Source: Escherichia phage VpaE1_ev78
Direction: 5' to 3' (one strand)
Sequence record: LR597663
Length of the DNA: 64,000 nt
Part shown: positions 19,679-39,345 of the stretch, in pieces
How positions within the stretch are numbered: the first letter of the stretch is position 1
How the letters are laid out: each line of letters starts with the position of its first letter
Position numbers and translations under genes: made by a program
The notes under the pieces: model-generated
Databases searched by the model: none
The model's input: the letters and a program-made list of their open reading frames with translations, nothing else
Told to the model about the DNA's origin: nothing

Positions 19679-20022
19679 TACAGTTTCCTCATTAAATACT
19701 TTTTAAGTTGTGTGTTAGGTTTCTCAAAAACTTCTATAGAAGATATCTTAACAGCTTCACCACGCATACCAGTATGTTTGAATATGTAGTACTCTAACAT
19801 CCCTATGTACTTTGCTGGTAAGTCATATTTGACATACACCGTCACAGAATCTTCAAATTCAACGACCTTTGTACCATCTTTGTAGTTAAACTCTTTAGGA
19901 TGGTCGTAGTTGTCTATGTCGTACATTAAAAAGAGTCTTTTACGTTGTAAGTCAAGCTTATTTGTTAAAGACTCTTTTATATCTGAGAAGTTTTTGTACA
20001 CTGTGACATGGAGCTTACTCAT
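19678..20022 (-). CDS. Hypothetical protein
   Basis: 114 aa ORF. Confidence 0.45.
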   Translation of the reverse strand: MSKLHVTVYKNFSDIKESLTNKLDLQRKRLFLMYDIDNYDHPKEFNYKDGTKVVEFEDSVTVYVKYDLPAKYIGMLEYYIFKHTGMRGEAVKISSIEVFEKPNTQLKKYLMRKL

Positions 20023-20308
20023 CGTTAAACTCTCTGACGAAGAAATAGTTGACTTTGTTATTACCTACCATAAGGTCAAAGCAGGTATTCTCAAAAGGTT
20101 TGTTGTAGGCATCATAAGAAGTATATGAGTCAGCTACTTGTTTAGTATTGAGCTTTTTACTTGATGGGTTTAAGAGGCCACCATACAGCTTCTTGATAGC
20201 CTCTTCTACAACAGACCAGATAATCTCGTCAGTAATTTCTTCGTACAGGTCAAGTTCACGCTCTAGTGAGAAGTCACAAATAGGGAAAACAACCTGTACT
20301 TTACTCAT
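20015..20308 (-). CDS. Hypothetical protein
   Basis: 97 aa ORF. Confidence 0.4.
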   Translation of the reverse strand: MSKVQVVFPICDFSLERELDLYEEITDEIIWSVVEEAIKKLYGGLLNPSSKKLNTKQVADSYTSYDAYNKPFENTCFDLMVGNNKVNYFFVREFNDE

Positions 20309-20706
20309 TAACGAATAACCTGTGAGACTTGAATTGCTTCAGTTACTGACAAATCACCCACTTTCTCTTCTTTGATAAAAGTGAAGGTGAGTTCAACAGG
20401 CTCTTGCTCTTCTTGCTCAACTGGAACACCATTAAGCTCATCAAAGATTGACTGAGTTGTCCAGTCTTCTCCACCATCTGGATAGTGGATTACGTAGAGA
20501 GGAAACTCTGTGTCAAACCAACCAAATACAGGGCAGCCATCTTCATCATCTCGCACCCGATGAAGGGTGCTTCCAGACCCTGTAAAACGAAGGAATAAAT
20601 CTCCGTTGCACTTGAATATTACTGCGTCGGCAAAACCTATGTCTTCTCGACCATCATGACCAAATGTGTCAACCTTTACTTGAATATCTCTAACATCTTT
20701 ATTCAT
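20308..20706 (-). CDS. Hypothetical protein
   Basis: 132 aa ORF. Confidence 0.45.
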   Translation of the reverse strand: MNKDVRDIQVKVDTFGHDGREDIGFADAVIFKCNGDLFLRFTGSGSTLHRVRDDEDGCPVFGWFDTEFPLYVIHYPDGGEDWTTQSIFDELNGVPVEQEEQEPVELTFTFIKEEKVGDLSVTEAIQVSQVIR

Positions 20707-21097
20707 AAAAACCTCTCTCTGCTTGTTCGATTTTTGCTCTTAAAGCTTCGCAATGTTGTAGATGATAGTTAGCTTCTTGTTCATGTGTTGCTAACTGCCT
20801 TTCCAGAACAGTTTTATAATAACTTGCGAGTTGCTCTTTTGTCAATGGGTGCTCTGAAATAATATCAAGTCCACTTTCACCGAGAGGGTTGAATTGTCCA
20901 TGTTCGTTGACATTGTAAGTCTCAAACTTGAACAGGCCATTGTTCACAGACTCAATAGGTGACAGTTCAACAAGCTCTACAGTAAACCGTGTATATACCT
21001 TGTCACCTCTTGAAACCACATTGTTCCCGACAATGCGTACAAGCGAGCCATTACGAGTGTACTTAAAAGTTCCAAAGTCACTAGCCCAAAGTTTCAT
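20699..21097 (-). CDS. Hypothetical protein
   Basis: 132 aa ORF with GGAG RBS. Confidence 0.45.
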   Translation of the reverse strand: MKLWASDFGTFKYTRNGSLVRIVGNNVVSRGDKVYTRFTVELVELSPIESVNNGLFKFETYNVNEHGQFNPLGESGLDIISEHPLTKEQLASYYKTVLERQLATHEQEANYHLQHCEALRAKIEQAERGFYE

Positions 21098-21111
21098 AGT
21101 TTTCTCCTTAG

Positions 21112-21140
21112 AAAATAAAAAAGGCTCCCGAAGGAGCCTA
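21112..21140 (-). terminator. Rho-independent terminator downstream of endolysin gene
   Basis: Minus-strand reading ggctcc-ttcg-ggagcc followed by TTTTTTTATTTT. Confidence 0.6.
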
Positions 21141-21148
21141 TGAAGATA

Positions 21149-21613
21149 TTACTTTGGGTATACACTGTCAAGATAAATGTCAGCTTCCATTCTACGTCTG
21201 TTTTTCAGTCCGTTTGAAGTGACTTTCTTACCTTTGACTGTAACCTTGTTCCACCACTGCATAGCTTCTGCACAACCAACCTTATTACCAGCATTGTGGC
21301 GCTTGATAAATGTGGAGTCCTGCATAGCCGTGATACCAATGTTGTATGTTTCACTTACGAGTGCATCAAACTCATTCTGAGAAGTTGGAACCTTGATAGC
21401 TTTGTTAACTGCTGCAACGAACTTTTCAACATCTGCGAGAAGGTACTGTTCAGCTTGTTCAGCCGTAATTTTCATACCCATCTTAACAGGTTTGCCAGCA
21501 ATACGGATAGTCCCATACCCAATTGTTGGGATTCCAGCAGAATCTTCGTAAGCCTCTAGCTTAAGACCTTCAAAGAACTTAATAGCGTCTAAACCTTTTC
21601 TTGAGAGTTGCAT
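21149..21613 (-). CDS. Endolysin, GH24 (T4/lambda-type) lysozyme
   Basis: 154 aa; FEGLKLEAYEDSAGIPTIGYGT matches the GH24 Glu-Asp-Thr catalytic arrangement. Confidence 0.7.
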   Translation of the reverse strand: MQLSRKGLDAIKFFEGLKLEAYEDSAGIPTIGYGTIRIAGKPVKMGMKITAEQAEQYLLADVEKFVAAVNKAIKVPTSQNEFDALVSETYNIGITAMQDSTFIKRHNAGNKVGCAEAMQWWNKVTVKGKKVTSNGLKNRRRMEADIYLDSVYPK

Positions 21614-22746
21614 TATGCCTCCCCTGCTGGATTAACTGTAACTGTTGCTGCATTAGATGTTACAGAGCCACCTGCGCCAGTAACTACACAGGTGTAGCTT
21701 CCTGCATCAGCAGCGGTTGCTCCTTCTTTGGTGTAGGTTGCAGTAGTTGCATCGAGGATGTCTTCCTCATCTTTCTTCCACTGATAACCTGTTGCACCTG
21801 TTGCCACAACATTCAACGTTAAGGTCTCACCTTCATTGATTTCTTGATTGGTTGGCTGTTGAGTGATGACAGGAAGTGCATTCACAGTAACTGTTGCAGG
21901 GCTAGAAGTAACAGAACCACCTGCGCCTGTTACAACGCAAGTGTATGAACCTGCATCTGCTGGCAGAGCACCAGACTTACTATAGGTTGCATCTGTAGCC
22001 GAAGGAATGTCAGAGCCATCTTTCTTCCACTGATAACCTGTTGCACCTGTTGCAGTCACTTCCAAGTTGATGTTTCCACCCTCATTGATGGTCTGGCTAG
22101 AAGGTTGTTGTGTAATCACAGGTAGTGCGTTCACAGTCACTGTTGCTGCATCTGAGGTAACACTTGTTCCACCCTCTCCAGATACAACACAAGTGTATGA
22201 ACCAGCGTCAGAAGGTGCTACTGACTGTTTTGTGTAAGTTGCAGAATTGGCACTAGGGATGTCCTCACCATCCTTCTTCCACTGATATCCAGTGGCGTTA
22301 GTTGCTAGAATGCTTAGAGTAAGTGTGCCACCCTCATTGACTGTTTGACCTGTTGGTTGCTGAGTAATTGCTGGTGGCTTAATAGCATCCTTCAACTTAG
22401 CATTCAACATTGAGAACGGCTTAACTCTTGCCAACCATTCACAGTAAATTGTGTCAACATCTTTACCATTGATGATTGCATACTGCAAATCCATGAAGAA
22501 GTCAGCAGTTCTCATCTGTGCACCAACACTGTAAAGCAATTCATCACTAAATGGAACTTTGTAGTCTGGTTTGTAGTCAAACTTCTCAACTTCTGCAATA
22601 TCAGCTTCAGGCCAATATGAACTATAGGTAAGTGGTAAAATAGCCTCTTGATATGTTCTAAAATCATATCTCTTACCAGCCTTTACATTTGCAATGAAAC
22701 CCTTCACAAACTCTTTGAAGTCTGGGTAAGTCTTTGCTTTAATCAT
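21613..22746 (-). CDS. Protein with N-terminal domain of unknown function plus three tandem Ig-like domains
   Basis: 377 aa; about 86 aa unit ITQQP..NEG....ATGATGYQWKKDG.DIP....ATY.K.....DAGSYTCVV.G.GGSVTS..ATVTVN repeated three times. Confidence 0.55.
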   Translation of the reverse strand: MIKAKTYPDFKEFVKGFIANVKAGKRYDFRTYQEAILPLTYSSYWPEADIAEVEKFDYKPDYKVPFSDELLYSVGAQMRTADFFMDLQYAIINGKDVDTIYCEWLARVKPFSMLNAKLKDAIKPPAITQQPTGQTVNEGGTLTLSILATNATGYQWKKDGEDIPSANSATYTKQSVAPSDAGSYTCVVSGEGGTSVTSDAATVTVNALPVITQQPSSQTINEGGNINLEVTATGATGYQWKKDGSDIPSATDATYSKSGALPADAGSYTCVVTGAGGSVTSSPATVTVNALPVITQQPTNQEINEGETLTLNVVATGATGYQWKKDEEDILDATTATYTKEGATAADAGSYTCVVTGAGGSVTSNAATVTVNPAGEA

Positions 22747-23114
22747 TTCTTTTTAGCCTCTAAATGTGCGTTTAGTCTAAAATAACCTTTGTGATGCGGA
22801 GATACATCACCAACAACAATACCTTTGACCTTATAACCTTTACCAATTACATACTGGATATCCATAAGGAATCTTCCAAGACCAACAATATGGAACATTG
22901 GATATAATAGATTCTCAGAATCTGGAATATTGATTTCAGGTTTGTAGGTGCGTTGTTCGCTTGTTGGTGTAATATCTTCTTCAGGCCATTTACTGAGTCT
23001 CCATGTCAAAGGTGTTGGGATAACATCATTAAGGTTGTACCTTTCACCATTTTGCACGGAATTGATATAGGATTGTAGGAAGCAATAAAAGTCTTTTGCA
23101 CTCTTAGCCTTCAT
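22743..23114 (-). CDS. Paralog of the N-terminal domain of the Ig-repeat protein
   Basis: 123 aa; aligns with residues 1-130 of the neighbour (MKAK..DF..F...I..V..G.RY, W.PE.DI, YKP, LLY, FLMD.QY). Confidence 0.5.
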   Translation of the reverse strand: MKAKSAKDFYCFLQSYINSVQNGERYNLNDVIPTPLTWRLSKWPEEDITPTSEQRTYKPEINIPDSENLLYPMFHIVGLGRFLMDIQYVIGKGYKVKGIVVGDVSPHHKGYFRLNAHLEAKKK

Positions 23115-23161
23115 TAAATATCCTTATAAATAGTTAAAGGGGCATCAGCCCCTATTCACAC

Positions 23162-23752
23162 TTAAGCTTTGGTCTTAAGTAGGTTCTTAAGTTTTTTAAG
23201 ATTCATACTCTCATCAAACTTAAAACCAAATCCATTGACATAATCAATGAACTCGGATTTCTTACTAAGTGACAATGCGTAACTCATATCAAAGTTCTTA
23301 CTTGTTTCTGCGTCTGGACTAGAGTTCACATCAAATGAAATTTCTGTAGGTTCTTGCTTACTTTTTCTCATATTATCAACCAACAAACATGTATAGTTTG
23401 CTGGATAGAAGTTTACACTACCATCAACGTAGCTGTACTTATTATTATGGATAAGGTTTGAAAATACCTTAAGGAATGTTTCTGAGTCGTGGCAAACAAG
23501 TTTGAATTGGCTGCTCTCTCCAAGCGCAACTAATGAGTACGGACTTTCACTATCAAAGTCATAATTTGGATTCGATGCCGTTACTGTTACACGCATCAAG
23601 TTATTAGCAATAGTCTTCTGTTTAAAAGAATTTTGAACATAGTGAAGACCTCTATCACACTGATTGACTAGCTCTTTAAGTAGGTCATTTGCATATGGCG
23701 AATTAATTGATACAGAGCCATCACTATTGTAATTAAAACTTACTGTTAACAT
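23162..23752 (-). CDS. Hypothetical protein
   Basis: 196 aa ORF. Confidence 0.45.
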   Translation of the reverse strand: MLTVSFNYNSDGSVSINSPYANDLLKELVNQCDRGLHYVQNSFKQKTIANNLMRVTVTASNPNYDFDSESPYSLVALGESSQFKLVCHDSETFLKVFSNLIHNNKYSYVDGSVNFYPANYTCLLVDNMRKSKQEPTEISFDVNSSPDAETSKNFDMSYALSLSKKSEFIDYVNGFGFKFDESMNLKKLKNLLKTKA

Positions 23753-23979
23753 TTTTCAGTTCTCCTGCGATTTATAATTTTGCTGCAATAGAGAAACGAA
23801 GTAAACTCACTGGAAGAAACCATTAAGTGTTGTTCACTAGATTGAGCCATTGCCCTGAAATACATTCCAGTCAAAGCATCATAGTGACTATTCTTTCCAA
23901 TTGAGGTTATATAGCCATGACTCTTTGCAGTTTGATATAAATCTATAATATCTGCGATTTCTAATTGGGAACTACACAT
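23746..23979 (-). CDS. Hypothetical protein
   Basis: 77 aa ORF. Confidence 0.35.
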   Translation of the reverse strand: MCSSQLEIADIIDLYQTAKSHGYITSIGKNSHYDALTGMYFRAMAQSSEQHLMVSSSEFTSFLYCSKIINRRRTEKC

Positions 23980-24143
23980 AGATAATCCTCTTGTCTTCTG
24001 TAATTTTGAAAGAACAGGTACAGACCAATTTCAGAGGATGAATAGTAGATTAACTCTACCCTTTTTGATTCCTTACAGTGATTGGTATTCTTACCTTTCT
24101 TCGGTTTATTTGATTTTCTCATTAAGTCTCCTTTGTAGAACAA
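23961..24143 (-). CDS. Hypothetical basic protein, first gene of minus-strand operon
   Basis: 60 aa ORF. Confidence 0.3.
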   Translation of the reverse strand: MFYKGDLMRKSNKPKKGKNTNHCKESKRVELIYYSSSEIGLYLFFQNYRRQEDYLCVVPN

Positions 24144-24371
24144 GGCAGACCTACAGCTTTAAGTAAGATGGTACAGTAATCCATACAACAAGTCAAGAAC
24201 TATTGCAAGTTAAAAAAGTTGTTGACAAAGTACTTGACAAGGTGTAGGCTTATAAATACTTAGAAGATAACTTAAAAGGTTCCTCTAAAAAGGCTATTTA
24301 AACAGATATCTTTCTGGATATCTATCTTTTATCTTAAAAGCCTTTTAAGAGGTCTTATAAGAGGCATACCA

Positions 24372-24743
24372 ATGAAAAACAGAACAAACAAAGGCCAGTT
24401 TAAAAAAGGCCAATCTGGAAACCCATCTGGAAGACCAAAAGGCTCTCGTAACAAAAGTTCACTTGTAAAAGCTCAACTGACCATTGATAATTCTGCTGAG
24501 TTTGCTGCAAAGTTGTTTGAAGCGATTGTTACAAGGGACGCTGCTAAGCTTGCAGAGTTCGGTTTGACGACTGACGATGTAAACCTGAAGTCGATGATGG
24601 AAGCTGGTAAAACTATCATGACTCACTCAGCAGGTGAGATGAAAGCGATTGCAGCAGACACTAAGAAGACACCTGATAATGGTGGTCAGTCTCAGGCAGA
24701 TAACAAACCAACGTTCTCTGCTGTAGCGACTCTCAAAAAATAA
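24372..24743 (+). CDS. Hypothetical protein with N-terminal GNPSGRPKG motif
   Basis: 123 aa; FKKGQSGNPSGRPKGSRNKS near N-terminus. Confidence 0.45.
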   Translation: MKNRTNKGQFKKGQSGNPSGRPKGSRNKSSLVKAQLTIDNSAEFAAKLFEAIVTRDAAKLAEFGLTTDDVNLKSMMEAGKTIMTHSAGEMKAIAADTKKTPDNGGQSQADNKPTFSAVATLKK

Positions 24744-24755
24744 TTTTAAAAGGTG

Positions 24756-24785
24756 TTGACAGACTCTACAAAGTTGCTCTAAAGT
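24756..24785 (+). promoter_or_regulatory. Sigma70-like promoter (TTGACA-18-TAAAGT)
   Basis: Consensus -35 and TAAAGT -10 upstream of the vWA gene. Confidence 0.5.
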
Positions 24786-24824
24786 CTGTCACATCAAACA
24801 ACAAATGAGAGAAGAGAGTAAAAT

Positions 24825-26240
24825 ATGAGCGAATTATTTAAACATGCGCACCTTCATGCAGGTCGAACTGAAAATGGTGCTGTAAACCATACTTCATCAA
24901 TGTCTGCTCTTGTGGACTTTTATAAAGCTGCTGGTTCAAGCCGTAGCAATGTAGAAGTCTTACCAGACCTGTTCTACAAAGCTTTGCGTGAGGATGTTGA
25001 TGTTGCAGTTCGTATTTTGCTTCATATGCGAGATGTACGAGAAGGTATGGGTGAGCGTAAAGCCTTCAGAACTGTTTTGCTTCAAGCGATTGAAGACAAA
25101 GTTTTAGAGCCTGTACAGGTTCTTCGCATTATGGATAAGATTGCAGAACTTGGTCGTTTTGATGACTTCAAAATCTTCGTAGGTACTCGTTTCGAGACAG
25201 ATGCCTTCAAACATTTAGAAGCAGCATTACTAGACCCTGCAACAGCAGGTTTGGCAGCCAAGTGGCTACCACGAGTCAAACCACGTCATAAGCAGTTTGT
25301 AAAACGTTTCTGCAAGTTTGCCAACTTGAGTGAGAAAGAGTACCGCACACTGTTGTCTGCACTATCTGATACAGTTGAGCAAAAAATCTCTGCTAATGAG
25401 TTTGGTAAGATTGACTACAGTAAGATTCCTTCTCTTGCTGCTGCACGTTACCAAAAGCTGTTTAACCGTAAAGATGGAGAGCGTTACAAAGCTTACATCG
25501 AGTCCTTATCAAAGGGTGAGGCTAAGATTAATGCTGGTGCTGTTTACCCATACGATGTGATTAAATCTGTCAAGCATGGTAATGCAGATGTTGCTAATGA
25601 GCAGTGGAAAGCACTACCAAACTGGATGGCAGAAGGTGAAAACATCTTATGTATGACTGATGTTTCAAGCTCAATGTCTTGGGTGAATTTTGGCTCCATT
25701 ACTGCTCTTGATATTGGTGTATCACTTGCCTTGTATGTAGCAGAACGCAATACAGGTTGCTTTAAGGATGAGTTGATGGTTTATTCAACAAACCCTCACT
25801 TCATCGAACTGAGTGGTGATTTACGAAACCGTCATCGTCAGGTGATGCGACACGTTGAATATGGCTCAACCAACTTACAAGCAGCTTTTGACCGCATTCT
25901 TGAGATAGGTAAGAGAAACAACTTGACTCAGGAAGATATGCCAAGTAAGCTTATCATCTTCTCCGATATGGAGTTCAATCAGGTTGATGGAGCTAACGGT
26001 CGTACAAACTTTGAAGCAATTCAGAGCAAGTACAAGAAAGCTGGATATGAGATGCCACAACTGGTATTCTGGTACTTAGCAAACCGTAATGGTACTTGCG
26101 AAGTGTCTGTTAAGGATAACGGTGTAGCAATGGTATCTGGTTTCTCTCCAGCCACTTTAAAAGCTCTGCTTGGTGGTGAGAAGTTTGACCCAATCAGCGT
26201 AATGCTCAAAGCAGTAATGATTGACCGCTATATCTGGTAA
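24825..26240 (+). CDS. vWA-domain protein with helical N-terminal domain (possible TROVE/Ro60-like architecture, unverified)
   Basis: 471 aa; C-terminal about 190 aa has MIDAS-like D-x-S-x-S (MTDVSSSMS) and later acidic motif FSDMEFNQ typical of von Willebrand A domains. Confidence 0.5.
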   Translation: MSELFKHAHLHAGRTENGAVNHTSSMSALVDFYKAAGSSRSNVEVLPDLFYKALREDVDVAVRILLHMRDVREGMGERKAFRTVLLQAIEDKVLEPVQVLRIMDKIAELGRFDDFKIFVGTRFETDAFKHLEAALLDPATAGLAAKWLPRVKPRHKQFVKRFCKFANLSEKEYRTLLSALSDTVEQKISANEFGKIDYSKIPSLAAARYQKLFNRKDGERYKAYIESLSKGEAKINAGAVYPYDVIKSVKHGNADVANEQWKALPNWMAEGENILCMTDVSSSMSWVNFGSITALDIGVSLALYVAERNTGCFKDELMVYSTNPHFIELSGDLRNRHRQVMRHVEYGSTNLQAAFDRILEIGKRNNLTQEDMPSKLIIFSDMEFNQVDGANGRTNFEAIQSKYKKAGYEMPQLVFWYLANRNGTCEVSVKDNGVAMVSGFSPATLKALLGGEKFDPISVMLKAVMIDRYIW

Positions 26241-26405: not shown

Positions 26406-26482
26406 CTCTGTTTAGCTCAGCTTGGTAGAGCGTTCCGTTTGGGGCGGTAAGGCCGGAGGTTCAAGTCCTCCAACAGAGACCA
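26406..26482 (+). tRNA. tRNA-Pro (anticodon TGG), CCA encoded
   Basis: 7 bp acceptor ctctgtt/aacagag, D-loop with GG, T-arm ggagg-ttcaagt-cctcc; hand-folded. Confidence 0.55.
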
Positions 26483-26489
26483 AATTAAT

Positions 26490-26567
26490 GTTCCAGTAGA
26501 CAAAATGGTAAAGTCACCACTCTTTCAAAGTGGATATCTGAGGGTTCAAATCCCTTCTGGAACGCCA
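26490..26567 (+). tRNA. tRNA-Glu (TTC)
   Basis: Acceptor gttccag/ctggaac, anticodon stem ccact/agtgg with loop ctTTCaa, T-loop ttcaaat, CCA encoded. Confidence 0.6.
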
Positions 26568-26574
26568 GTTTTGA

Positions 26575-26648
26575 CAGAAGACCAATTGCAGCAAACTTAA
26601 TCTTATTCATCTGAAGGTAAATCGGACAAAGAAGAGATTTGGTCTGGT
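26575..26648 (+). repeat. Inverted-repeat-bracketed element, copy 1 (cagaagacca ... tggtctgg)
   Basis: Conserved 5' end cagaagacc(a/g)..t.cagcaa and 3' end ggtctgg shared by four elements; ends are mutually complementary. Confidence 0.55.
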
Positions 26649-26658
26649 CATTAAGAAT

Positions 26659-26735
26659 TGCGGGTATAGAGAAAGGGCGTCTCACATGTCTCATTAGCAT
26701 GGTATCGGCAGGTTCGACTCCTGCACCCGCCTCCA
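26659..26735 (+). tRNA. tRNA with CAT anticodon (Met/Ile2/initiator type); acceptor register uncertain
   Basis: D-stem gaga/tctc, anticodon stem catgt/gcatg with loop ctCATta, T-arm gcagg-ttcgact-cctgc; 1-72 appears mismatched. Confidence 0.4.
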
Positions 26736-26741
26736 AATTTA

Positions 26742-26806
26742 CAGAAGACCGTTTACAGCAATATTTATTAAATTTTTAGCGGAAAAAATTGAAAGATACG
26801 GTCTGG
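26742..26806 (+). repeat. Inverted-repeat-bracketed element, copy 2
   Basis: 5' acagaagaccgtttacagcaa identical to copy 4; 3' cggtctggtaa. Confidence 0.55.
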
Positions 26807-26819
26807 TAACACTAAACAT

Positions 26820-26896
26820 GGTTAGGAAGCACATAAGGTATGTGCGGTCGCCTGTTAAGCGAATGGCACAGGGTTCGAATCCCTGACTAACCGCCA
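26820..26896 (+). tRNA. tRNA-Asn (GTT)
   Basis: D-stem gcac/gtgc, anticodon loop ctGTTaa, T-arm caggg-ttcgaat-ccctg, CCA encoded. Confidence 0.55.
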
Positions 26897-26905
26897 AATT
26901 TAAAT

Positions 26906-26993
26906 GTGTCGTTATCCCGTAGATGGTAGCGGTGGGGACTGTAAATCCCTTGTCATTGAGACTCGGTAGGTTCGACTCCTACACGGCACACCA
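26906..26993 (+). tRNA. tRNA-Tyr (GTA), long variable arm
   Basis: Acceptor gtgtcgt/acggcac, anticodon loop ctGTAaa, 88 nt with extra arm, T-arm gtagg-ttcgact-cctac, CCA encoded. Confidence 0.6.
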
Positions 26994-26998
26994 ATAAA

Positions 26999-27076
26999 GG
27001 TTATGTAGTTTAATTTGGTTAAAATACTCCCCTGTCACGGGAGATGATGAGGGTTCAAATCCCTTCGTAACCGCCA
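26999..27076 (+). tRNA. tRNA-Asp (GTC)
   Basis: Acceptor ggttatg/cgtaacc, anticodon stem ctccc/gggag with loop ctGTCac, T-loop ttcaaat, CCA encoded. Confidence 0.65.
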
Positions 27077-27137
27077 ATTTTGAGAGGGCTATTTAGCCCC
27101 TCCCTTAAAGAGTTCTTACGAGTATTCTTTAAAGGAG

Positions 27138-27211
27138 CAGAAGACCAAATACAGCAAGTTATTTAAAATTTCAAGCCAATTTAATTTTGAAAAATTTAAA
27201 ACTTGGTCTGG
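27138..27211 (+). repeat. Inverted-repeat-bracketed element, copy 3
   Basis: cagaagaccaaatacagcaag ... cttggtctgg. Confidence 0.5.
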
Positions 27212-27224
27212 CTCAACAAATTTA

Positions 27225-27355
27225 CAGAAGACCGTTTACAGCAAAACTTAACAATCTATTTCTCCGGTAAAGAAAAGGCGAAGGTTCGATTCCTTCACTC
27301 GGCAGATGTCGAGTTGGTGTAATGGTAGTACTTAAGATGATAAACAACGGTCTGG
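27225..27355 (+). ncRNA. Inverted-repeat-bracketed element, copy 4, carrying tRNA-like fragments (candidate structured ncRNA or decayed tRNA)
   Basis: Same conserved ends as copy 2; interior has a T-arm gaagg-ttcgatt-ccttc (27280-27296), a 7 bp hairpin (27297-27314) and a D-arm-like tggtgtaatggtagtac, but no anticodon arm. Confidence 0.4.
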
Positions 27356-27504
27356 TAATTATCTTTGTAGATAAGTTATTAAGCTTACCTGTGAGTATGC
27401 GACCACAAAGGGTGAAAGGGTAAATTCTAGATTTAAACCCAAAAAGGCACATCGCTACAGACCTTAAGCAAGTCTGGGTAGCTTATCTACAAAGATAATT
27501 TAAT

Positions 27505-27580
27505 GGAAGTGTAGCAGAATGGTGATGCGGCAGACTTTTAATCTGACAGGCGATGGGTTCGAATCCCTCCACTTCTACCA
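27505..27580 (+). tRNA. tRNA-Lys (TTT)
   Basis: Acceptor ggaagtg/cacttct, anticodon loop ctTTTaa, T-loop ttcgaat, CCA encoded; T-stem appears short. Confidence 0.5.
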
Positions 27581-27584
27581 ATAT

Positions 27585-27661
27585 GGTTCAGTCGCAGATA
27601 AGGTAATGCAAGGGTCTCATAAGCCCTATGAATGTGGGTTCGATTCCCATCTGAACCTCCA
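27585..27661 (+). tRNA. tRNA-Met (CAT)
   Basis: Acceptor ggttcag/ctgaacc, anticodon stem agggt/gccct with loop ctCATaa, T-arm gtggg-ttcgatt-cccat, CCA encoded. Confidence 0.6.
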
Positions 27662-27662
27662 A

Positions 27663-27738
27663 GCTGGTATAGTTAAGAAGGTTATAACACTCCCCTGATA
27701 AGGGAACATCGGTGGTTCGATTCCACCTACCAGTACCA
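27663..27738 (+). tRNA. tRNA-Ile (GAT)
   Basis: Acceptor gctggta/taccagt, D-stem gtta/taac, anticodon loop ctGATaa, T-arm ggtgg-ttcgatt-ccacc, CCA encoded. Confidence 0.65.
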
Positions 27739-27753
27739 ATTTCAATAAAGTTG

Positions 27754-27782
27754 TTGACATTGAGATGTGACTACTTTATAGT
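27754..27782 (+). promoter_or_regulatory. Sigma70-like promoter (TTGACA-17-TATAGT) inside tRNA region
   Basis: Consensus -35, 17 nt spacer, TATAGT -10. Confidence 0.55.
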
Positions 27783-27986
27783 AACCTTAGTTTTCGTTGC
27801 GTAGCGTCTATTTTGCAAATTTAAAATAAATGCAAACGACAATGTTTTTCTGGCAGTAGCTTGATAGGCTAAACACCAGTGAGGTCTTCCAATCCCTCAT
27901 CAAAGAATTTGGCGTACTCGCCCACGGTATGATTAATAAGGTGGGCATCTTTAAGGGCTTTCTAAGAGAGTCTTTAAAGATAATTA

Positions 27987-28068
27987 CGGGGCGTATCTCA
28001 GCGGTCTTCTAAACCGCCGTTAACCGAGTAAGTGGAGTATGCGGGTTCGAGTCCTGCCGCCTCGACCA
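27987..28068 (+). tRNA. Atypical tRNA-like gene (no clear D-arm; anticodon-type loop ctTCTaa); identity unresolved
   Basis: Acceptor cggggcg/cgcctcg, T-arm gcggg-ttcgagt-cctgc and CCA present; only one perfect 5 bp stem-loop in the body, 23 nt between it and the T-arm. Confidence 0.3.
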
Positions 28069-28082
28069 ATTTTGGAGAAATC

Positions 28083-28430
28083 ATGAAAACTTGTATTAGG
28101 TGCAAACTTAGCAAGGATGAAAATGATTTCTACATGAAAGATGGTAGGAGAACTCATTCATACTGTAAAAAGTGTGTTAATGAGCAAACCATAGAAAGAC
28201 AAAGAGCACTTAAACTCTCAGCTATTGAGTACAAAGGTGGGGTTTGTCACGATTGTGGTAAAAAGTATCATCCAGCAGTGTATGACTTCCATCATTTGAA
28301 TCCTTCAGAGAAAGATTTTAACATTGGTCATAGGAAAAGCCTTAAGTTCTCTCAAGAACTAAAAGATGAACTTGACAAATGTGTTTTGCTATGTTCAAAT
28401 TGCCATAGGGTAAGACATGCAAAGTATTAG
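28083..28430 (+). CDS. HNH endonuclease with N-terminal zinc finger
   Basis: Start at ATG (MKTCIRCK) with GGAG RBS; CxxC...CxxC then DFHHLNP...LLCSNCHRVRH (HNH motif); track start 28032 lies in the upstream tRNA. Confidence 0.6.
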   Translation: MKTCIRCKLSKDENDFYMKDGRRTHSYCKKCVNEQTIERQRALKLSAIEYKGGVCHDCGKKYHPAVYDFHHLNPSEKDFNIGHRKSLKFSQELKDELDKCVLLCSNCHRVRHAKY

Positions 28431-28573
28431 TTAGCAGATTACTTAGACGACCTAAGCGGGTCTTCCTGTAGGGAGGTGGTCTGTATCTCATGTTTTCCAG
28501 AACATGTAAATAATCTGAGAAGAAGCTTGACAGTGTTGAGATAACAGGGTAAGCTTCGAATTATAGTTTTAAT

Positions 28574-28644
28574 AGGGGTGAGCTATGGCAGCAATAGAGT
28601 CTCCAAAATTCTTGATTAGAGTTCGAATCTCTACACCCCTGCCA
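28574..28644 (+). tRNA. tRNA-Trp (CCA)
   Basis: Acceptor aggggtg/cacccct, anticodon loop ctCCAaa, T-arm tagag-ttcgaat-ctcta, CCA encoded. Confidence 0.5.
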
Positions 28645-28658
28645 GAACAGGTGCTTGT

Positions 28659-29063
28659 ATGAAACTTTGTAGAAAATGTTCTCAAGAAAAGCCTTTAAGC
28701 TGCTTTCATAAAAGAGGTAATGGCTATCAGTCTGCTTGCAAAGATTGTAAAGCTAAGTACTCAGCAAAGAGATACAAAGAAGACCCTACTTATAAAGCAA
28801 AAAGAAAAGTTAGGGCAAAATATGACAAAAAGAGGAACAGAGAGTTCCTTAGTAGATATAAAAAGTTTTGCAAATGCAGAATATGTGGCGAATCTGAGCC
28901 AGTAGCTTTGGATTTTCATCACTTAGACCCTAAAGAGAAAGATTTTGCTCCAAGCAATCTTAAAACTTACTCTAGGGGCACTATTAAGCGTGAAGTCCGT
29001 AAGTGTGTTGTGCTTTGTTCAAACTGTCATAGGAAAGTTCATGAAGGACTGTTAAGTATTTAA
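28659..29063 (+). CDS. HNH endonuclease with N-terminal zinc finger (paralog of 28083-28430)
   Basis: 134 aa; CRKCSQEK...CKDC zinc finger and DFHHLDPKEKDF...VLCSNCHRKVH HNH motif. Confidence 0.6.
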   Translation: MKLCRKCSQEKPLSCFHKRGNGYQSACKDCKAKYSAKRYKEDPTYKAKRKVRAKYDKKRNREFLSRYKKFCKCRICGESEPVALDFHHLDPKEKDFAPSNLKTYSRGTIKREVRKCVVLCSNCHRKVHEGLLSI

Positions 29064-29076
29064 CAGTCTTATTAGG

Positions 29077-29164
29077 GGTAGGTAGCGGCTAATGGTAGCC
29101 AAACTGTCTTGAAAACAGTTGCCACTGTAGAGATACGGTGAGGGTTCGACTCCTTTACTTACCG
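29077..29164 (+). tRNA. tRNA-Ser (TGA), long variable arm
   Basis: Acceptor ggtaggt/acttacc, anticodon stem actgt/acagt with loop ctTGAaa, 88 nt with extra arm. Confidence 0.6.
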
Positions 29165-29323
29165 CCTAATAAGATTTAAAGCCAAGCTTCATTCGGATGT
29201 TGCTTTGGTATCCCGCGTGTATTGTTGTACACACTGATAAAGCACCTAGTAGGTGTCACGGAGAAGAGATAATATCAAGCTCTCCAAAGGTTCTAGTCAC
29301 CGGATTAAACAAGACTATGCAAA

Positions 29324-29350
29324 GACCTTTTTAGGTCTTTTTAGAGGGCT
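29324..29350 (+). terminator. Terminator-like hairpin
   Basis: aaagacc-ttttta-ggtcttt followed by TTAG. Confidence 0.4.
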
Positions 29351-29421
29351 TCTAAGGTTATTACAGCTTGTTGTGGAACCTTGTTGCTTAGGTTCTTAGA
29401 AGTTCTCTAAAAAGATTTAAT

Positions 29422-29499
29422 GGGAGATTGACGGTAATTGGTAAACCTATCTCGCTTAGAACGAGATGTTTGAGGGTTCGAATCCCTTGTCTCCTACCA
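29422..29499 (+). tRNA. tRNA with anticodon TAG (Leu-type) but short variable loop
   Basis: Acceptor gggagat/gtctcct, perfect anticodon stem tctcg/cgaga with loop ctTAGaa, T-arm gaggg-ttcgaat-ccctt, CCA encoded; only 5 nt variable region. Confidence 0.45.
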
Positions 29500-29506
29500 A
29501 ATTAAT

Positions 29507-29582
29507 GCAGGTGTAGCAAAATGGTTATGCGGCTGACTCTTAATCAGTAAGACGATGGGTTCAATTCCCTCCACCTGTACCA
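29507..29582 (+). tRNA. tRNA-Lys (CTT)
   Basis: Acceptor gcaggtg/cacctgt, anticodon loop ctCTTaa, T region gatgggttcaattccctcc like the Lys(TTT) gene, CCA encoded. Confidence 0.5.
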
Positions 29583-29587
29583 AAAAT

Positions 29588-29663
29588 GGGGTCATAGTTT
29601 ATATGGTTAAAATTCGAGTTTTGCAAACTTGGGAACTGAGTTCAATTCTCAGTGACTCCACCA
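29588..29663 (+). tRNA. tRNA-Ala (TGC)
   Basis: Acceptor ggggtca/tgactcc, anticodon stem cgagt/acttg with loop ttTGCaa, T-arm ctgag-ttcaatt-ctcag, CCA encoded. Confidence 0.6.
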
Positions 29664-29669
29664 ATTAGT

Positions 29670-29744
29670 GCATCCATAGTTTAAACGGGAAAATTACAGT
29701 CTTCCAAACTGAGGTTGAGGGTTCGATTCCCTCTGGATGCTCCA
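29670..29744 (+). tRNA. tRNA-Gly (TCC)
   Basis: Acceptor gcatcca/tggatgc, anticodon loop ctTCCaa, T-arm gaggg-ttcgatt-ccctc, CCA encoded. Confidence 0.6.
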
Positions 29745-29751
29745 AATTAAT

Positions 29752-29827
29752 GCTCCTATCGTATAATTGGCTATTACGGTTGCCTTGTAAGTAACTTATC
29801 AGGGTTCGAATCCTTGTGGGAGCACCA
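29752..29827 (+). tRNA. tRNA-Thr (TGT)
   Basis: Acceptor gctccta/tgggagc, anticodon stem gttgc/gtaac with loop ctTGTaa, T-loop ttcgaat, CCA encoded. Confidence 0.6.
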
Positions 29828-29924
29828 ATTTAGAGGTCAAGTGAAAGACCGCTTTGAGTCAACTGAAGACCGTAACAAATTCCACGGAGTTGAGTTAGCG
29901 GCACAACTCCAGACCTCTTCTCAC

Positions 29925-29999
29925 ACTCGCTTAGTTTATATGGTAAAACACCACCCTTACAAGATGAAGAAAAAGGTTCAAGTCCTTTAGTGAGTACCA
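29925..29999 (+). tRNA. tRNA, anticodon uncertain (possibly TAC, Val)
   Basis: Acceptor actcgct/agtgagt, T-arm aaagg-ttcaagt-ccttt, CCA encoded; anticodon stem pairs poorly. Confidence 0.4.
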
Positions 30000-30000
30000 T

Positions 30001-30078
30001 GTTCCAGTATCCCAATTGGCAGAGGATGCAAGCTCAAACCTTGTACTAGTGATGGTTCGAATCCATCTTGGAACACCA
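30001..30078 (+). tRNA. tRNA with anticodon CAA (Leu-type) but short variable loop
   Basis: Acceptor gttccag/ttggaac, anticodon stem gcaag/cttgt with loop ctCAAac, T-arm gatgg-ttcgaat-ccatc, CCA encoded. Confidence 0.45.
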
Positions 30079-30083
30079 ATTTT

Positions 30084-30159
30084 GCAGGATTAGTTCAAAT
30101 GGATAGAGCAACAGTCTACGAAGCTGTTAATAGGGGTTCAAATCCCTTATCCTGCGCCA
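30084..30159 (+). tRNA. tRNA-Arg (ACG)
   Basis: Acceptor gcaggat/atcctgc, anticodon stem acagt/gctgt with loop ctACGaa, T-loop ttcaaat, CCA encoded. Confidence 0.6.
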
Positions 30160-30178
30160 ATTTAAAGAGGCTATTTAG

Positions 30179-30736
30179 ATGAGATATTTGAAGTATGCTT
30201 CATGGATTTTCTTAGCTTTGTTAGAACCATTTGCAGCAATCTTAGCAGTTATCTTAGCACCTTTTGTAGTTCCATTCTACAGTGAGAAGAAAGGACACTT
30301 ACCTTTCGGGTTCAGATGGATGGAGACATATGACAACCCAATTGATGGTGATGAAGGTCACGTTAAAAGATGGGCTAATATTAGATGGATTGGTAAACTA
30401 GGTGTCTACATGCAAAGAGTCGGATGGCTCTGGAGAAACAAAGCTTATAACTTCTCTTACCATGTGTTAGGAAGAGATGTAAAAGATGTTACTAAGTGGA
30501 AAGGTAATATCAACGTAAGTTCTAACCCTGAAGATAATCAGACAGGTTATCTCCTAATGTGGAACAGTAATGCTTGGGGATTATTCGCTTTTACCCCATC
30601 AATTAAAATCTTTGGTAAACAGTTTTACTGGAGAATTTATATTGGGTGGAAGCTAAAAAGTGTTGTCCCAGAAGAAAGAGCATTCTCAAGGGAAAGAGTT
30701 ATGTTGGCATTCTTTATTCATCCACTAAGAAAGTAA
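30179..30736 (+). CDS. Hypothetical membrane protein embedded in tRNA array
   Basis: 185 aa; AAGAGG RBS; hydrophobic N-terminus WIFLALLEPFAAILAVILAPFVVPF; Trp-rich. Confidence 0.5.
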   Translation: MRYLKYASWIFLALLEPFAAILAVILAPFVVPFYSEKKGHLPFGFRWMETYDNPIDGDEGHVKRWANIRWIGKLGVYMQRVGWLWRNKAYNFSYHVLGRDVKDVTKWKGNINVSSNPEDNQTGYLLMWNSNAWGLFAFTPSIKIFGKQFYWRIYIGWKLKSVVPEERAFSRERVMLAFFIHPLRK

Positions 30737-30744
30737 AGATTTAA

Positions 30745-30820
30745 AGGGGATTAGTTTACAAGGTTAAAACCTCGGTCTTTGAAATCGAAGAAGTTGGTTC
30801 AATTCCAACATCCCCCGCCA
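30745..30820 (+). tRNA. tRNA-Gln (TTG)
   Basis: Acceptor aggggat/atccccc with 1-72 mismatch, anticodon loop ctTTGaa, T-arm gttgg-ttcaatt-ccaac, CCA encoded. Confidence 0.5.
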
Positions 30821-30822
30821 AT

Positions 30823-30901
30823 GCTCCATTACTCCAATTGGCAGAGAGGCCAGACTTAAAATCTGTGTTATGTATCGGTTCGAATCCGATATGGAGTACC
30901 A
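30823..30901 (+). tRNA. tRNA with anticodon TAA (Leu-type), atypical fold
   Basis: Acceptor gctccat/atggagt, 4 bp anticodon stem with loop ctTAAaa, T-arm atcgg-ttcgaat-ccgat, CCA encoded; 8 nt variable region. Confidence 0.4.
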
Positions 30902-30905
30902 AATT

Positions 30906-30981
30906 TAGCGGTATAGCATAACTGGCAATGCAGCAGCCTCTGAAGCTGTCCTATTAAGGTTCAAATCCTTATGCCGCTGCC
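30906..30981 (+). tRNA. tRNA-Gln (CTG)
   Basis: Acceptor agcggta/tgccgct, anticodon stem gcagc/gctgt with loop ctCTGaa, T-loop ttcaaat, CCA encoded. Confidence 0.5.
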
Positions 30982-31012
30982 ACTTCTAAGGATTCTTACG
31001 AGAGTCCTTAAA

Positions 31013-31088
31013 TGTGGCCTTATCATAAATGGTAATGACCCATGCTGTGAACATGGTCTATACGGGTTCAAATCCCGTAGGTCACCCC
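31013..31088 (+). tRNA. tRNA-His (GTG)
   Basis: Acceptor gtggcct/aggtcac, D-stem tcat/atga, perfect anticodon stem ccatg/catgg with loop ctGTGaa, discriminator C, CCA encoded. Confidence 0.65.
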
Positions 31089-31092
31089 AATT

Positions 31093-31168
31093 TATAGTCC
31101 AAGTAGCTTATATGGTTAAAGCGCGTGTCTGAAAAACATGAGAAGAGGGTTCAAATCCCACTGGACTA
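31093..31168 (+). tRNA. tRNA-Phe (GAA)
   Basis: Perfect 7 bp acceptor tagtcca/tggacta, anticodon stem cgtgt/acatg with loop ctGAAaa, T-loop ttcaaat. Confidence 0.6.
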
Positions 31169-31187
31169 CCAATTTCAAAGGTGCTTA

Positions 31188-31922: not shown

Positions 31923-31924
31923 AT

Positions 31925-32017
31925 GGAAGATTAACCCTAAAAGGTAAGGGAGCAGTTTGCTAAACTGCCAGTAGCTGAGAAATCGGTGTACCAGTTCAAG
32001 TCTGGTATCTTCCTCCA
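31925..32017 (+). tRNA. tRNA-Ser (GCT), long variable arm
   Basis: Acceptor ggaagat/atcttcc, anticodon stem gcagt/actgc with loop ttGCTaa, 93 nt with extra arm, CCA encoded. Confidence 0.65.
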
Positions 32018-38238: not shown

Positions 38239-39345
38239 ATGTTGACTAATTCTGAAAAAAGCAGATTTTTCCTTGCTGACCTGACTGGTGAAGTCCAGTC
38301 TATCCCAAACACTTATGGGTATATTTCCAACTTAGGTCTATTCCGTTCAGCACCAATCACCCAAACTACTTTCCTTATGGACTTGACTGATTGGGATGTT
38401 AGCTTGCTTGATGCGGTAGACCGTGATAGCCGTAAAGCAGAGACTAGCGCACCTGAGCGTGTTCGTCAAATCAGCTTCCCAATGATGTACTTCAAAGAAG
38501 TTGAAAGCATTACTCCTGATGAGATTCAGGGTGTACGTCAGCCAGGCACTGCAAACGAACTGACTACTGAAGCTGTAGTACGTGCTAAGAAGCTGATGAA
38601 GATTCGTACCAAGTTCGATATTACTCGTGAGTTCCTGTTTATGCAAGCTCTGAAGGGTAAAGTTGTTGATGCTCGTGGTACTCTGTACGCTGACCTGTAC
38701 AAGCAGTTCGACGTTGAGAAGAAGACTATTTACTTCGACCTTGACAATCCTAATGCTGATATCGACGCTTCTATTGAAGAACTGCGTATGCACATGGAAG
38801 ATGAAGCTAAGACTGGCACTGTAATCAACGGTGAAGAGATTCACGTAGTTGTTGACCGTGTATTCTTCAGCAAACTGGTTAAGCATCCTAAGATTCGTGA
38901 TGCTTATCTTGCACAGCAGACTCCACTGGCTTGGCAACAGATTACTGGTTCTCTGAGAACTGGTGGTGCTGACGGCGTTCAGGCTCATATGAATACTTTC
39001 TACTACGGTGGTGTTAAGTTTGTCCAGTACAACGGTAAGTTCAAAGACAAGCGTGGTAAGGTTCACACTCTGGTTAGCATTGACAGCGTAGCAGACACTG
39101 TTGGTGTTGGTCATGCTTTCCCTAACGTAGCTATGCTGGGTGAAGCTAACAACATCTTCGAAGTTGCATATGGTCCATGTCCTAAGATGGGTTACGCAAA
39201 TACACTTGGTCAGGAACTGTACGTATTCGAATACGAAAAAGACCGTGACGAAGGTATTGACTTCGAAGCTCACTCTTACATGCTGCCATACTGTACTCGT
39301 CCTCAGTTGCTGGTAGATGTTCGCGCTGACGCTAAAGGCGAATGA
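38239..39345 (+). CDS. Major capsid protein
   Basis: 368 aa directly after protease/decoration genes; strong RBS context. Confidence 0.5.
   Translation: MLTNSEKSRFFLADLTGEVQSIPNTYGYISNLGLFRSAPITQTTFLMDLTDWDVSLLDAVDRDSRKAETSAPERVRQISFPMMYFKEVESITPDEIQGVRQPGTANELTTEAVVRAKKLMKIRTKFDITREFLFMQALKGKVVDARGTLYADLYKQFDVEKKTIYFDLDNPNADIDASIEELRMHMEDEAKTGTVINGEEIHVVVDRVFFSKLVKHPKIRDAYLAQQTPLAWQQITGSLRTGGADGVQAHMNTFYYGGVKFVQYNGKFKDKRGKVHTLVSIDSVADTVGVGHAFPNVAMLGEANNIFEVAYGPCPKMGYANTLGQELYVFEYEKDRDEGIDFEAHSYMLPYCTRPQLLVDVRADAKGE

Follow-up and report, generated by a model that had tools for sequence, protein, structure and literature searches.

The 377-residue protein encoded next to the endolysin in the stretch of DNA analysed here (64,000 nucleotides, hereafter the window) is, at a probability that we put at about 0.9, the hexamer-centre decoration protein of the Felixounavirus capsid, orthologous to Hex-Dec of Bas63 (Escherichia phage JohannRWettstein), gp20 of Sf14 and gp36 of Felix O1. 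The window is 99% identical at the DNA level to Felixounavirus LF110P2, and is a Felixounavirus genome. We refer to the protein as Hex-Dec, to its N-terminal capsid-binding domain as CapBD and to the major capsid protein as MCP. This Ig-repeat gene is already known: two 2025 cryo-EM papers solved Hex-Dec on the capsid and noted both the odd position of its gene and the variable number of Ig domains (PMC12609058, PMC11821841). The decoration reading is correct and nothing in the main feature is new. The new detail is a conserved, translationally coupled copy of CapBD that lies upstream, lacks a display module and is unreported, which we regard as a modest lead.

Identity and capsid contacts of Hex-Dec

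Using phmmer, the window protein aligns near-identically with Bas63 Hex-Dec (9ncf_S) over residues 1-372 (E = 1.4e-277), and with Sf14 gp20 (9c2d_S) from residue 1 onward (E = 1.2e-167); it is ~95% identical to the Bas63 ortholog and homologous to Sf14 gp20 over its full length. In these orthologs, the 60 pentamer-proximal (facet-edge) hexamers of a T=9 capsid each carry one monomer at their centre, bound through an N-terminal, helical CapBD of ~118 residues (PMC12609058, PMC11821841). The Bas63 maps place CapBD density at the facet-edge hexamer centres of a protein with four predicted Ig domains, the gene for which is >10 kb away from the structural module (PMC12609058). Sf14 gp20 is detected by MS, fills only 60 of the 80 hexamers in a single orientation and forms salt bridges from Arg79 and Arg107 to Asp221 of the MCP (PMC11821841). 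Felix O1 gp36, encoded by ORF36 adjoining the lysin ORF35, is among the MS-identified virion proteins. Both contact residues, R79 and R107, are present in the window Hex-Dec and are invariant in the Hex-Dec alignment, and the window MCP, ~99% identical to that of Bas63 (9ncf_A; phmmer E = 3e-247), carries Asp at residue 221. The capsid location, known from cryo-EM of Bas63 and Sf14, is assigned to the window protein by orthology. An AlphaFold2 (AF2) model of full-length Hex-Dec is poor in the CapBD part (pLDDT 30-50), which was left unused, with the solved structures standing in for it.

The initial annotation had listed three options side by side, namely an accessory to lysis, a surface-adhesion factor and a decoration protein whose gene lies apart from the head module; the last of these is borne out by the Bas63 and Sf14 cryo-EM and by the Sf14 and Felix O1 virion MS, and the first is dealt with below. 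It had also given the N-terminal domain as 130 residues, which we shorten to about 118-124. A tail location, as implied by the names “tail protein” and “major tail protein” that dozens of records and PHROG 3995 use, the latter given to Felix O1 gp36 in 2010, is scarcely credible: these names stem from virion MS and Ig-domain similarity rather than from localization, two independent cryo-EM studies find Hex-Dec on capsid hexamers, and the sheath and tube proteins of Bas63 and Sf14 are the products of different genes (PMC12609058, PMC11821841). We reject the tail reading as contradicted by the published structures, and most records that now carry such a name should read “hexamer-centre (Hoc-like) head decoration protein.”

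Organization and expression of the cassette

The 377-residue ORF, the adjoining 123-residue ORF and the lysozyme neighbor all exist as first described, and they form a three-gene cassette that ends with the endolysin (Table 1).

Table 1. Features of the Hex-Dec cassette and the gene for its binding partner in the window
Feature	Position	Strand	Basis or remark
Intrinsic terminator-like hairpin and T-run, closing the cassette	21122..21139	minus	annotated terminator in wV8, AYO145A and Mordin
Endolysin ORF, 154 aa	21149-21613	minus	Pfam Phage_lysozyme PF00959, E = 6.8e-41
Hex-Dec ORF, 377 aa	21613-22746	minus	ORF exists as earlier described
Hex-Dec stop codon (TAA)	21613-21615	minus	
Ig-like domain 3 and short C-terminal tail, aa 292-377	21616..21873	minus	Pfam, repeat boundaries, model
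Ig-like domain 2, aa 209-291	21874..22122	minus	Pfam, repeat boundaries, model
Ig-like domain 1, aa 125-208	22123..22374	minus	Pfam Ig_3/I-set; repeat boundaries; pLDDT >90
Hex-Dec CapBD, aa 1-118	22393..22746	minus	carries the MCP-contact residues R79 and R107; ~95% identical to the modelled CapBD of 9ncf_S
ATGA stop/start overlap of paralog and Hex-Dec (translational coupling)	22743..22746	minus	sequence; junctions of 11 phages compared
CapBD paralog ORF, 123 aa	22743-23114	minus	upstream neighbor of Hex-Dec
GGGGC-TGAT-GCCCC hairpin in the gap between gene 43 and the paralog, upstream cassette boundary	23139..23152	minus	
Major capsid protein (MCP), binding partner of Hex-Dec	38239..39345	plus	~15.5 kb from the Hex-Dec gene

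The order paralog, Hex-Dec, endolysin is common to Felixounavirus, Mooglevirus, Suspvirus and a divergent 87-kb metagenomic phage. The endolysin ATG and the Hex-Dec TAA share one base, and in every Ounavirinae phage examined, including Erwinia and Hafnia phages that have no paralog, Hex-Dec directly precedes the endolysin, its stop codon overlapping the endolysin start codon. Bas63, Sf14 and Felix O1 likewise encode Hex-Dec outside the structural module and beside the endolysin. The label “p13” on the lysin of wV8 and Felix O1 was considered as a proteomics label and rejected, since it denotes similarity to APSE-1 P13.

This invariant neighborhood, together with an endolysin that consists of a single Phage_lysozyme domain, is what would favor a lysis accessory, in which the Ig protein would serve as the cell-wall or carbohydrate-binding module of an enzyme that itself has no binding domain. 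Single-domain lysozymes are, on the other hand, usual in phages of Gram-negative hosts. Cryo-EM puts the N-terminal domain of the ortholog in hexamer centres, MS finds the ortholog in virions, and the capsid-contact residues and MCP D221 are conserved in the window. A role in lysis is thus highly improbable, and we reject it as contradicted by the published structures.

The upstream hairpin (23139..23152) is an annotated rho-independent terminator in wV8, AYO145A and Mordin and is kept in Suspvirus EP1. From the gene overlaps and the terminator hairpins on both flanks, Hex-Dec is therefore probably co-expressed with the endolysin, at a time that would coincide with the completion of virions. 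A search upstream of the cassette found no promoter motif specific to the phage, the hairpin-to-ATG sequence CTATTTATAAGGA having 3 matches in the window versus 2.8 expected, and sigma-70-like sites around the cassette occur at or below their frequency in shuffled sequence. The timing of transcription is inferred, and no pertinent transcriptomic work on Felixounavirus turned up in a search of the literature.

A frameshift or readthrough linking Hex-Dec to its neighbor had been suggested as a check. Such a programmed −1 shift, at GCT AAA AAG before the paralog stop, would yield a fusion of two CapBDs and three Ig domains, and in the window Hex-Dec does lie in the −1 frame relative to the paralog, with an AAA AAG lysine pair two codons ahead of the paralog stop. 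The motif is T AAA AAG, however, which falls short of a complete A AAA AAG heptamer; wV8 has a disrupted version (GAA AAG), and Mooglevirus has none (GCT AAG AAA TGA). In Suspvirus, the two genes overlap by 8 nt and Hex-Dec is read in the +1 frame, and a lineage with a paralog pseudogene keeps Hex-Dec with its own ATG. Neither the slippery-like motif nor the relative frame is conserved across genera at the junctions of the 11 phages, and we reject the fusion as barely conceivable.

The Ig-like repeats and their number

That the protein contains three tandem Ig-like domains is confirmed by Pfam (Ig_3, E = 9.7e-34; Ig_2, 1.8e-27; I-set, 8.2e-26; three stretches each), by the AF2 model, in which residues 125-372 form beta-sandwiches with pLDDT >90, and by Foldseek, which matches the Ig region to titin I67-I69, Robo and LRIG1 at E = 1e-19 to 1e-21. 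In phmmer, this region is also hit by the Ig domain of T5 pb10 (5lxk_A, E = 2.8e-12). The units measure 84, 83 and 86 residues, with start-to-start spacings of 249 and 252 bp in the DNA, which replaces the initial estimate of ~258 bp or ~86 residues per repeat. Repetition at the DNA level, also proposed there, holds for conserved cores of 33-48 nt, which are all that a repeat search across the units recovers; identity between units is only 63-66% in DNA, lower than the 67-71% in protein, and Tandem Repeats Finder called no ~250-bp array in positions 20000-25000 because the units are too diverged at the DNA level.

The number of Ig units ranges from one to four among close relatives, with one in EC6 and SP116, two in Felix O1, VpaE1 and SEP1, three in the window, wV8 and Sf14, and four in Bas63. 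Domain 2 of the window is missing from two-Ig orthologs such as VpaE1, and the deletion junctions differ (GYQWKK in Felix O1 and EC6; NALPVITQQP in VpaE1). Unit number may change through in-register recombination between repeats. The three I-set domains would form a flexible fibre that extends outward from the capsid in the manner of Hoc; it would not be a structural cement and would probably adhere weakly and multivalently to glycans, surfaces or other virions. This putative adhesive role is drawn from analogy with T4 Hoc, and the surface-adhesion option of the initial annotation fits it.

A coupled paralog of the capsid-binding domain

The 123-residue ORF, whose orthologs are Felix O1 ORF37, Sf14 gp21 and bas63_0125, is a true paralog of the Hex-Dec CapBD alone, without Ig domains, as initially annotated. 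The relationship far exceeds chance: BLASTP aligns it to the Hex-Dec N terminus with 38% identity over 101 residues (E = 3e-17), phmmer matches it to 9ncf_S in an alignment covering residues 2-117 (E = 1.2e-11), and the PHROG families of the two proteins (4463, function unknown, for the paralog and 3995 for Hex-Dec) cross-match. Its structure model, of only moderate quality (pLDDT 66, pTM 0.68), superimposes in Foldseek on 9ncf_S with a TM score of 0.65 and on the other solved CapBD with 0.61 (probability 1.00), and these two are the only PDB matches below E = 0.7. Identities of 45-77% among paralogs, 57-86% among CapBDs and 32-42% between the two groups therefore indicate one old duplication.

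The paralog is a genuine gene and evolves under purifying selection. About 233 of 252 records carry it intact, at 122-124 residues, as does a metagenomic phage in which it is only 45% identical, and its ribosome-binding site (RBS) and ATGA coupling to Hex-Dec are conserved. Omega averages 0.126 over 21 pairs with dS up to >1, compared with 0.044 for CapBD; in the same phage pair, the paralog retains 45% identity and CapBD 57%. Thirty-one positions, spread over the whole domain, are invariant between paralogs and CapBDs. The position of R79 is an invariant Gly in the paralog, and that of R107 is His or Gln in Felixounavirus, Mooglevirus and Suspvirus and Arg only in the distant P0099. In one viable lineage, the paralog is a pseudogene that has lost its ATG, carries indels and lacks roughly 190-225 bp of its interior. 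Phages with a paralog pseudogene include SP116 and fKMPT1, and isolates with the allele come from China, India, Spain and Egypt.

The published list of Felix O1 virion proteins detected by MS does not contain ORF37. The paralog is unmentioned in the Sf14 paper and its two supplements (PMC11821841) and in the main text of the Bas63 paper (PMC12609058), and the maps of these phages, both of which encode it, have no reported density on the 20 true three-fold hexamers. The points that we count against a capsid-binding paralog are the replacement of R79 and R107, the absence from Felix O1 MS, the lack of three-fold density and the pseudogene allele.

A soluble protein that stays out of the virion, such as a Hex-Dec chaperone or partner or one with no connection to the capsid, is a serious possibility that still falls short of probable. 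The loss of both Arg contacts, evolution faster than that of CapBD in both identity and omega (0.13 versus 0.04), the Felix O1 proteome, the capsid maps with no extra density and the conserved, tight translational coupling to Hex-Dec speak for it; the retained CapBD fold predicted at TM 0.65 and the invariant positions spanning the whole domain speak against it, and positive evidence for another partner is nil. Our best guess, a tentative one, is instead that the paralog is a dispensable, Ig-less binder of capsid hexamers that would modulate where or how much Hex-Dec binds, acting transiently in assembly or at sites or occupancies hidden by icosahedral averaging. Rather doubtful is a second, Ig-less hexamer-binding protein that the published maps and proteomes have missed. 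As such, the paralog might cap the 20 true three-fold hexamers inaccessible to Hex-Dec, where icosahedral averaging would smear a monomer on the strict three-fold axis to one-third density; alternatively, it might sit transiently at procapsid hexamer centres and would then dictate the arrangement of the 60 Hex-Dec fibres on each capsid. That the paralog is a decaying leftover of the duplication with no function is very unlikely: a clear pseudogene does occur in one lineage of viable phages, but the broad retention of an intact gene, the low mean omega at dS up to >1 and the conserved RBS and ATGA coupling argue otherwise.

If the paralog does bind hexamers, it would represent a decoration protein whose duplicate shed the display domain and turned into a site-specific plug or a regulator of decoration. 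The paralog could reveal how decoration proteins reach site specificity (60 of 80 hexamers) and could serve as a minimal anchor for phage display with capsids of the Felix O1 type.

Comparison with known decoration proteins

The Ig domain of T5 pb10 is detectably homologous to the Hex-Dec Ig domains (5lxk_A, E = 2.8e-12; 8zvi_a residues 81-159). T5 pb10 has a single Ig domain, and its capsid-binding domain does not match CapBD, the alignment being confined to query residues 132-207 against 81-159 of 8zvi_a. Hex-Dec lacks the pb10-type N-terminal capsid-binding domain that defines the T5 pb10 family and falls outside it.

The likeness to T4 Hoc is functional and architectural: both are hexamer-centre monomers in which a string of Ig domains projects from a small capsid-binding domain, and decoration of the Hoc type is dispensable and thought to be adhesive (PMC12609058, PMC11821841). 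The domain order is reversed, with the Ig domains N-terminal and the capsid binder C-terminal in Hoc, and the capsid-binding domains differ in topology and share no sequence similarity (PMC12609058). Unlike T4 Hoc, Hex-Dec is found on only 60 of 80 hexamers and in one orientation (PMC11821841). The PHROG families named “Hoc-like head decoration” match Hex-Dec only at residues ~120-370, that is, in the Ig region. Hex-Dec works like Hoc, yet is not a member of the T4 Hoc family.

The CapBD family is tiny. A word-indexed protein search with CapBD returned close relatives only, and it took an exhaustive HMMER search to find distant members; among 1.84 billion proteins, the family comprises only 12 representatives at 50% clustering. 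Kolesnikvirus, Hafnia phages and the metagenomic P0101-P0105 share the N-terminal CapBD, and in the Erwinia and Hafnia phages, the gene adjoins the endolysin, without a stand-alone upstream paralog. On visual inspection, CapBD relatives outside Felixounavirus display other modules, namely an Ig domain resembling Big_2, an Ig domain of a different type or a tail rich in lysine. Finally, Bas63 Hex-Dec (9ncf S), Sf14 gp20 (9c2d S) and Felix O1 gp36 are direct orthologs that have in common with the window protein the CapBD, R79 and R107, MCP D221, the Ig type and the position between paralog and endolysin; only the number of Ig domains differs, with three in the window and Sf14, four in Bas63 and two in Felix O1.

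Identity and Ig repeats of Hex-Dec

The 377-residue protein matches chain S of PDB entry 9ncf, the "immunoglobulin-like domain protein" of phage Bas63, with an E value of 1.4e-277 and near-identity over residues 1 to 372, and also matches chain S of the Sf14 entry 9c2d (E = 1.2e-167). It is a decoration protein that has already been solved and published and is not new. The Bas63 protein was named Hex-Dec; its gene lies >10 kb outside the structural module, and its four Ig domains are predicted, not resolved in the structure (PMC12609058). The Sf14 ortholog, gp20, was found in virions by MS and is a monomer that occupies only the pentamer-proximal hexamers; its first 118 residues do the binding, and R79 and R107 are salt-bridged to capsid protein residue D221 (PMC11821841). 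Both Arg residues are present in Hex-Dec of the window and invariant among relatives. In Felix O1, the ortholog gp36 adjoins the lysin gp35 and appears, mislabeled "major tail protein," in a 2010 list of MS-identified virion proteins. The initial annotation had offered three roles for this protein. The one that holds, and that the literature had already established (PMC12609058, PMC11821841), is decoration of the capsid by a protein whose gene lies apart from the head module; an accessory role in lysis finds no support, and surface adhesion would correspond to the Hoc-like role of the Ig fiber proposed by both cryo-EM papers.

The three tandem Ig-like domains noted initially are recovered by Pfam (Ig_3, E = 9.7e-34; Ig_2, 1.8e-27; I-set, 8.2e-26), by an AF2 model in which residues 125 to 372 form three β-sandwiches with pLDDT >90, and by Foldseek matches of this model to titin I67–I69, Robo, and LRIG1 (E = 1e-19 to 1e-21). 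The observation is real and the initial structural reading sound, with small corrections: the units (84, 83, and 86 residues) are spaced by 249 and 252 bp in the DNA, not about 258 bp. They share 67 to 71% identity as protein and only 63 to 66% as DNA, and TRF called no array over them. Copy number varies among relatives, with one Ig unit in EC6 and SP116, two in Felix O1, VpaE1, and SEP1, three in the window, wV8, AYO145A, and Sf14, and four in Bas63; one to three were reported for other felixounaviruses (PMC12609058). Since the junctions differ between phages, falling at the conserved GYQWKK motif in Felix O1 and EC6 and at the NALPVITQQP linker in VpaE1, the alignments point to repeated, independent in-register recombination between Ig units. 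In Shigella phage Z31 (locus L004, 2998–3570), which also lacks the paralog described below, Hex-Dec is split into a 134-residue ORF holding only the capsid-binding domain (CapBD) and a 55-residue fragment; either a naturally Ig-less decoration protein or an error of sequencing could explain the split.

Most records label the Ig gene "tail protein" or "hypothetical protein," a "tail" misannotation that spread from Felix O1 gp36. Among ~250 records with Hex-Dec orthologs, "tail protein," "putative tail protein," and "major tail protein" are widespread, and PHROG 3995, the Hex-Dec family, is categorized as "tail." What remains of value here is the correction of this annotation together with a conserved CapBD-only paralog, so far undescribed.

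A conserved CapBD-only paralog in the lysozyme cassette

The three minus-strand ORFs exist as initially described. The paralog stop overlaps the Hex-Dec start (ATGA), and the Hex-Dec TAA shares one base with the lysozyme ATG. The region is 99% identical in Felixounavirus LF110P2 and 94 to 97% in many Felix O1-like phages.

Features of the cassette, the capsid gene, and paralog remnants in relatives
Feature	Coordinates	Strand	Remarks
Paralog ORF, 123 aa	22743-23114	minus	
Hex-Dec (Ig) ORF, 377 aa	21613-22746	minus	
Lysozyme ORF, 154 aa	21149-21613	minus	
GC-rich hairpin ahead of cassette	23139-23152		terminator annotation in wV8, AYO145A, Mordin
Strong hairpin and T-run after cassette	21122-21139		terminator annotation in wV8, AYO145A, Mordin
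Capsid protein	38239-39345		~99% identical to Bas63 capsid protein; D221 present
Paralog pseudogene remnant, SP116	L007 2309-2503		
Paralog pseudogene remnant, Z31	L004 2806-3000		
Paralog pseudogene remnants, loci L018, L019, L020			

Annotation of the 123-residue product as a paralog of the N-terminal domain is borne out by whole-length homology to CapBD (BLASTP, 3e-17; phmmer to 9ncf_S, 1.2e-11) and by an AF2 model of moderate confidence (pLDDT 66, pTM 0.68) whose only PDB matches are the solved CapBDs 9ncf_S (TM 0.65) and 9c2d_S (TM 0.61). Thirty-one positions are invariant in the alignment of paralogs and CapBDs. Felixouna-, Moogle-, and Suspvirus all carry the gene upstream of Hex-Dec, including the two phages with solved structures (Sf14 gp21, bas63_0125). 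An 87-kb ENA metagenome scaffold from a divergent Ounavirinae-like phage (locus L013, 4001–5726) keeps the exact cassette, with a 122-residue paralog, a 298-residue Hex-Dec, and lysozyme, at only 45% identity to the window for the paralog versus 57% for CapBD. Kolesnikvirus and a Hafnia phage keep Hex-Dec beside the endolysin, yet the interval separating it from gene 43 holds no paralog. Because paralogs are closer to each other (45–77% identity) than to any CapBD (32–42%), we infer one old duplication.

Relative to the paralog, Hex-Dec of the window is read in frame −1, and GCT AAA AAG lies ahead of the paralog stop. The programmed frameshift raised initially does not hold, as neither motif nor relative frame is conserved: the slippery-like motif is disrupted in wV8 and missing from Mooglevirus, and in Suspvirus the two genes overlap by 8 nt and Hex-Dec is in frame +1. 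The junction reflects ordinary translational coupling and no recoding.

Several side observations concern the surroundings and the database records. The divergent intergenic region at 24144–24371, between the minus-strand operon and a plus-strand DUF5681 gene, holds two short 12-bp tandem repeats (24305–24327 and 24342–24364) and σ70-like sites on the minus strand, and is probably an early promoter/regulatory region serving both arms. A 471-residue protein (24825–26240, plus strand) with DUF2828, DUF7788, and a weak vWA match directly precedes an array of 26 tRNA genes (26406–32097, plus strand); its Felix O1 homolog is named "RNA-binding protein" in RefSeq, and it is possibly a Ro60/TROVE-like RNA-handling protein beside the phage tRNAs. 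GU169904.1, a 147-kb record labeled Staphylococcus phage SA1, contains both paralog and Hex-Dec of Felixounavirus (~143190–143558; 99% identity); chimerism or contamination of the assembly is probable. The 109-kb record MG969406.1 (Salmonella phage GE_vB_B3) exceeds its relatives by ~22 kb in length and has four CapBD matches versus the usual two; a duplicated region or concatenated assembly is the likely cause.

Loss and possible function of the paralog

A single pseudogene allele recurs in five phages isolated in China, India, Spain, and Egypt: the ATG is lost, and the same internal deletion of ~190 to 225 bp leaves a ~190-bp remnant with later small indels. Hex-Dec of these phages is intact or shortened. 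This pattern indicates a single pseudogenization event that persists in nature, and a paralog-level match is missing in ~19 of 252 records. Mean ω is 0.126 for the paralog versus 0.044 for CapBD; it is a functional gene, if less constrained than CapBD, and a dead relic is unlikely. Being conserved and constrained, yet a pseudogene or missing in some phages, the paralog is beneficial but dispensable.

Our main reading, to which we assign a probability of about 0.3, is that the paralog is a putative Ig-less hexamer binder, transient or masked by symmetry averaging, that would modulate Hex-Dec placement. We rate a function away from the capsid at much the same probability. The R79 position is an invariant Gly and the R107 position His or Gln in Felixouna-, Moogle-, and Suspvirus paralogs, and Felix O1 ORF37, the paralog, is not among the virion proteins detected by MS in the 2010 list. 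For the 20 true three-fold hexamers, no density is described in either cryo-EM paper (PMC12609058, PMC11821841), and the paralog goes without mention in the Sf14 paper and two of its supplements (PMC11821841) and in the Bas63 main text (PMC12609058).

Relationship to known decoration proteins

Hex-Dec resembles T4 Hoc and T5 pb10 in its mode of action, a monomer with an Ig fiber seated in hexamer centers, but is a member of neither family: it has the opposite domain order to Hoc, its CapBD is topologically distinct (PMC12609058), and Hoc-like PHROGs and T5 pb10 align with its Ig region only. When 1.84 billion representatives were searched exhaustively with HMMER, only 12 clusters proved to carry the Hex-Dec CapBD; in distant members it is fused to other display modules, judged by eye to be a lysine-rich tail or Ig domains of Big_2-like type. 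CapBD thus seems to serve as a modular anchor confined to Ounavirinae-like phages.
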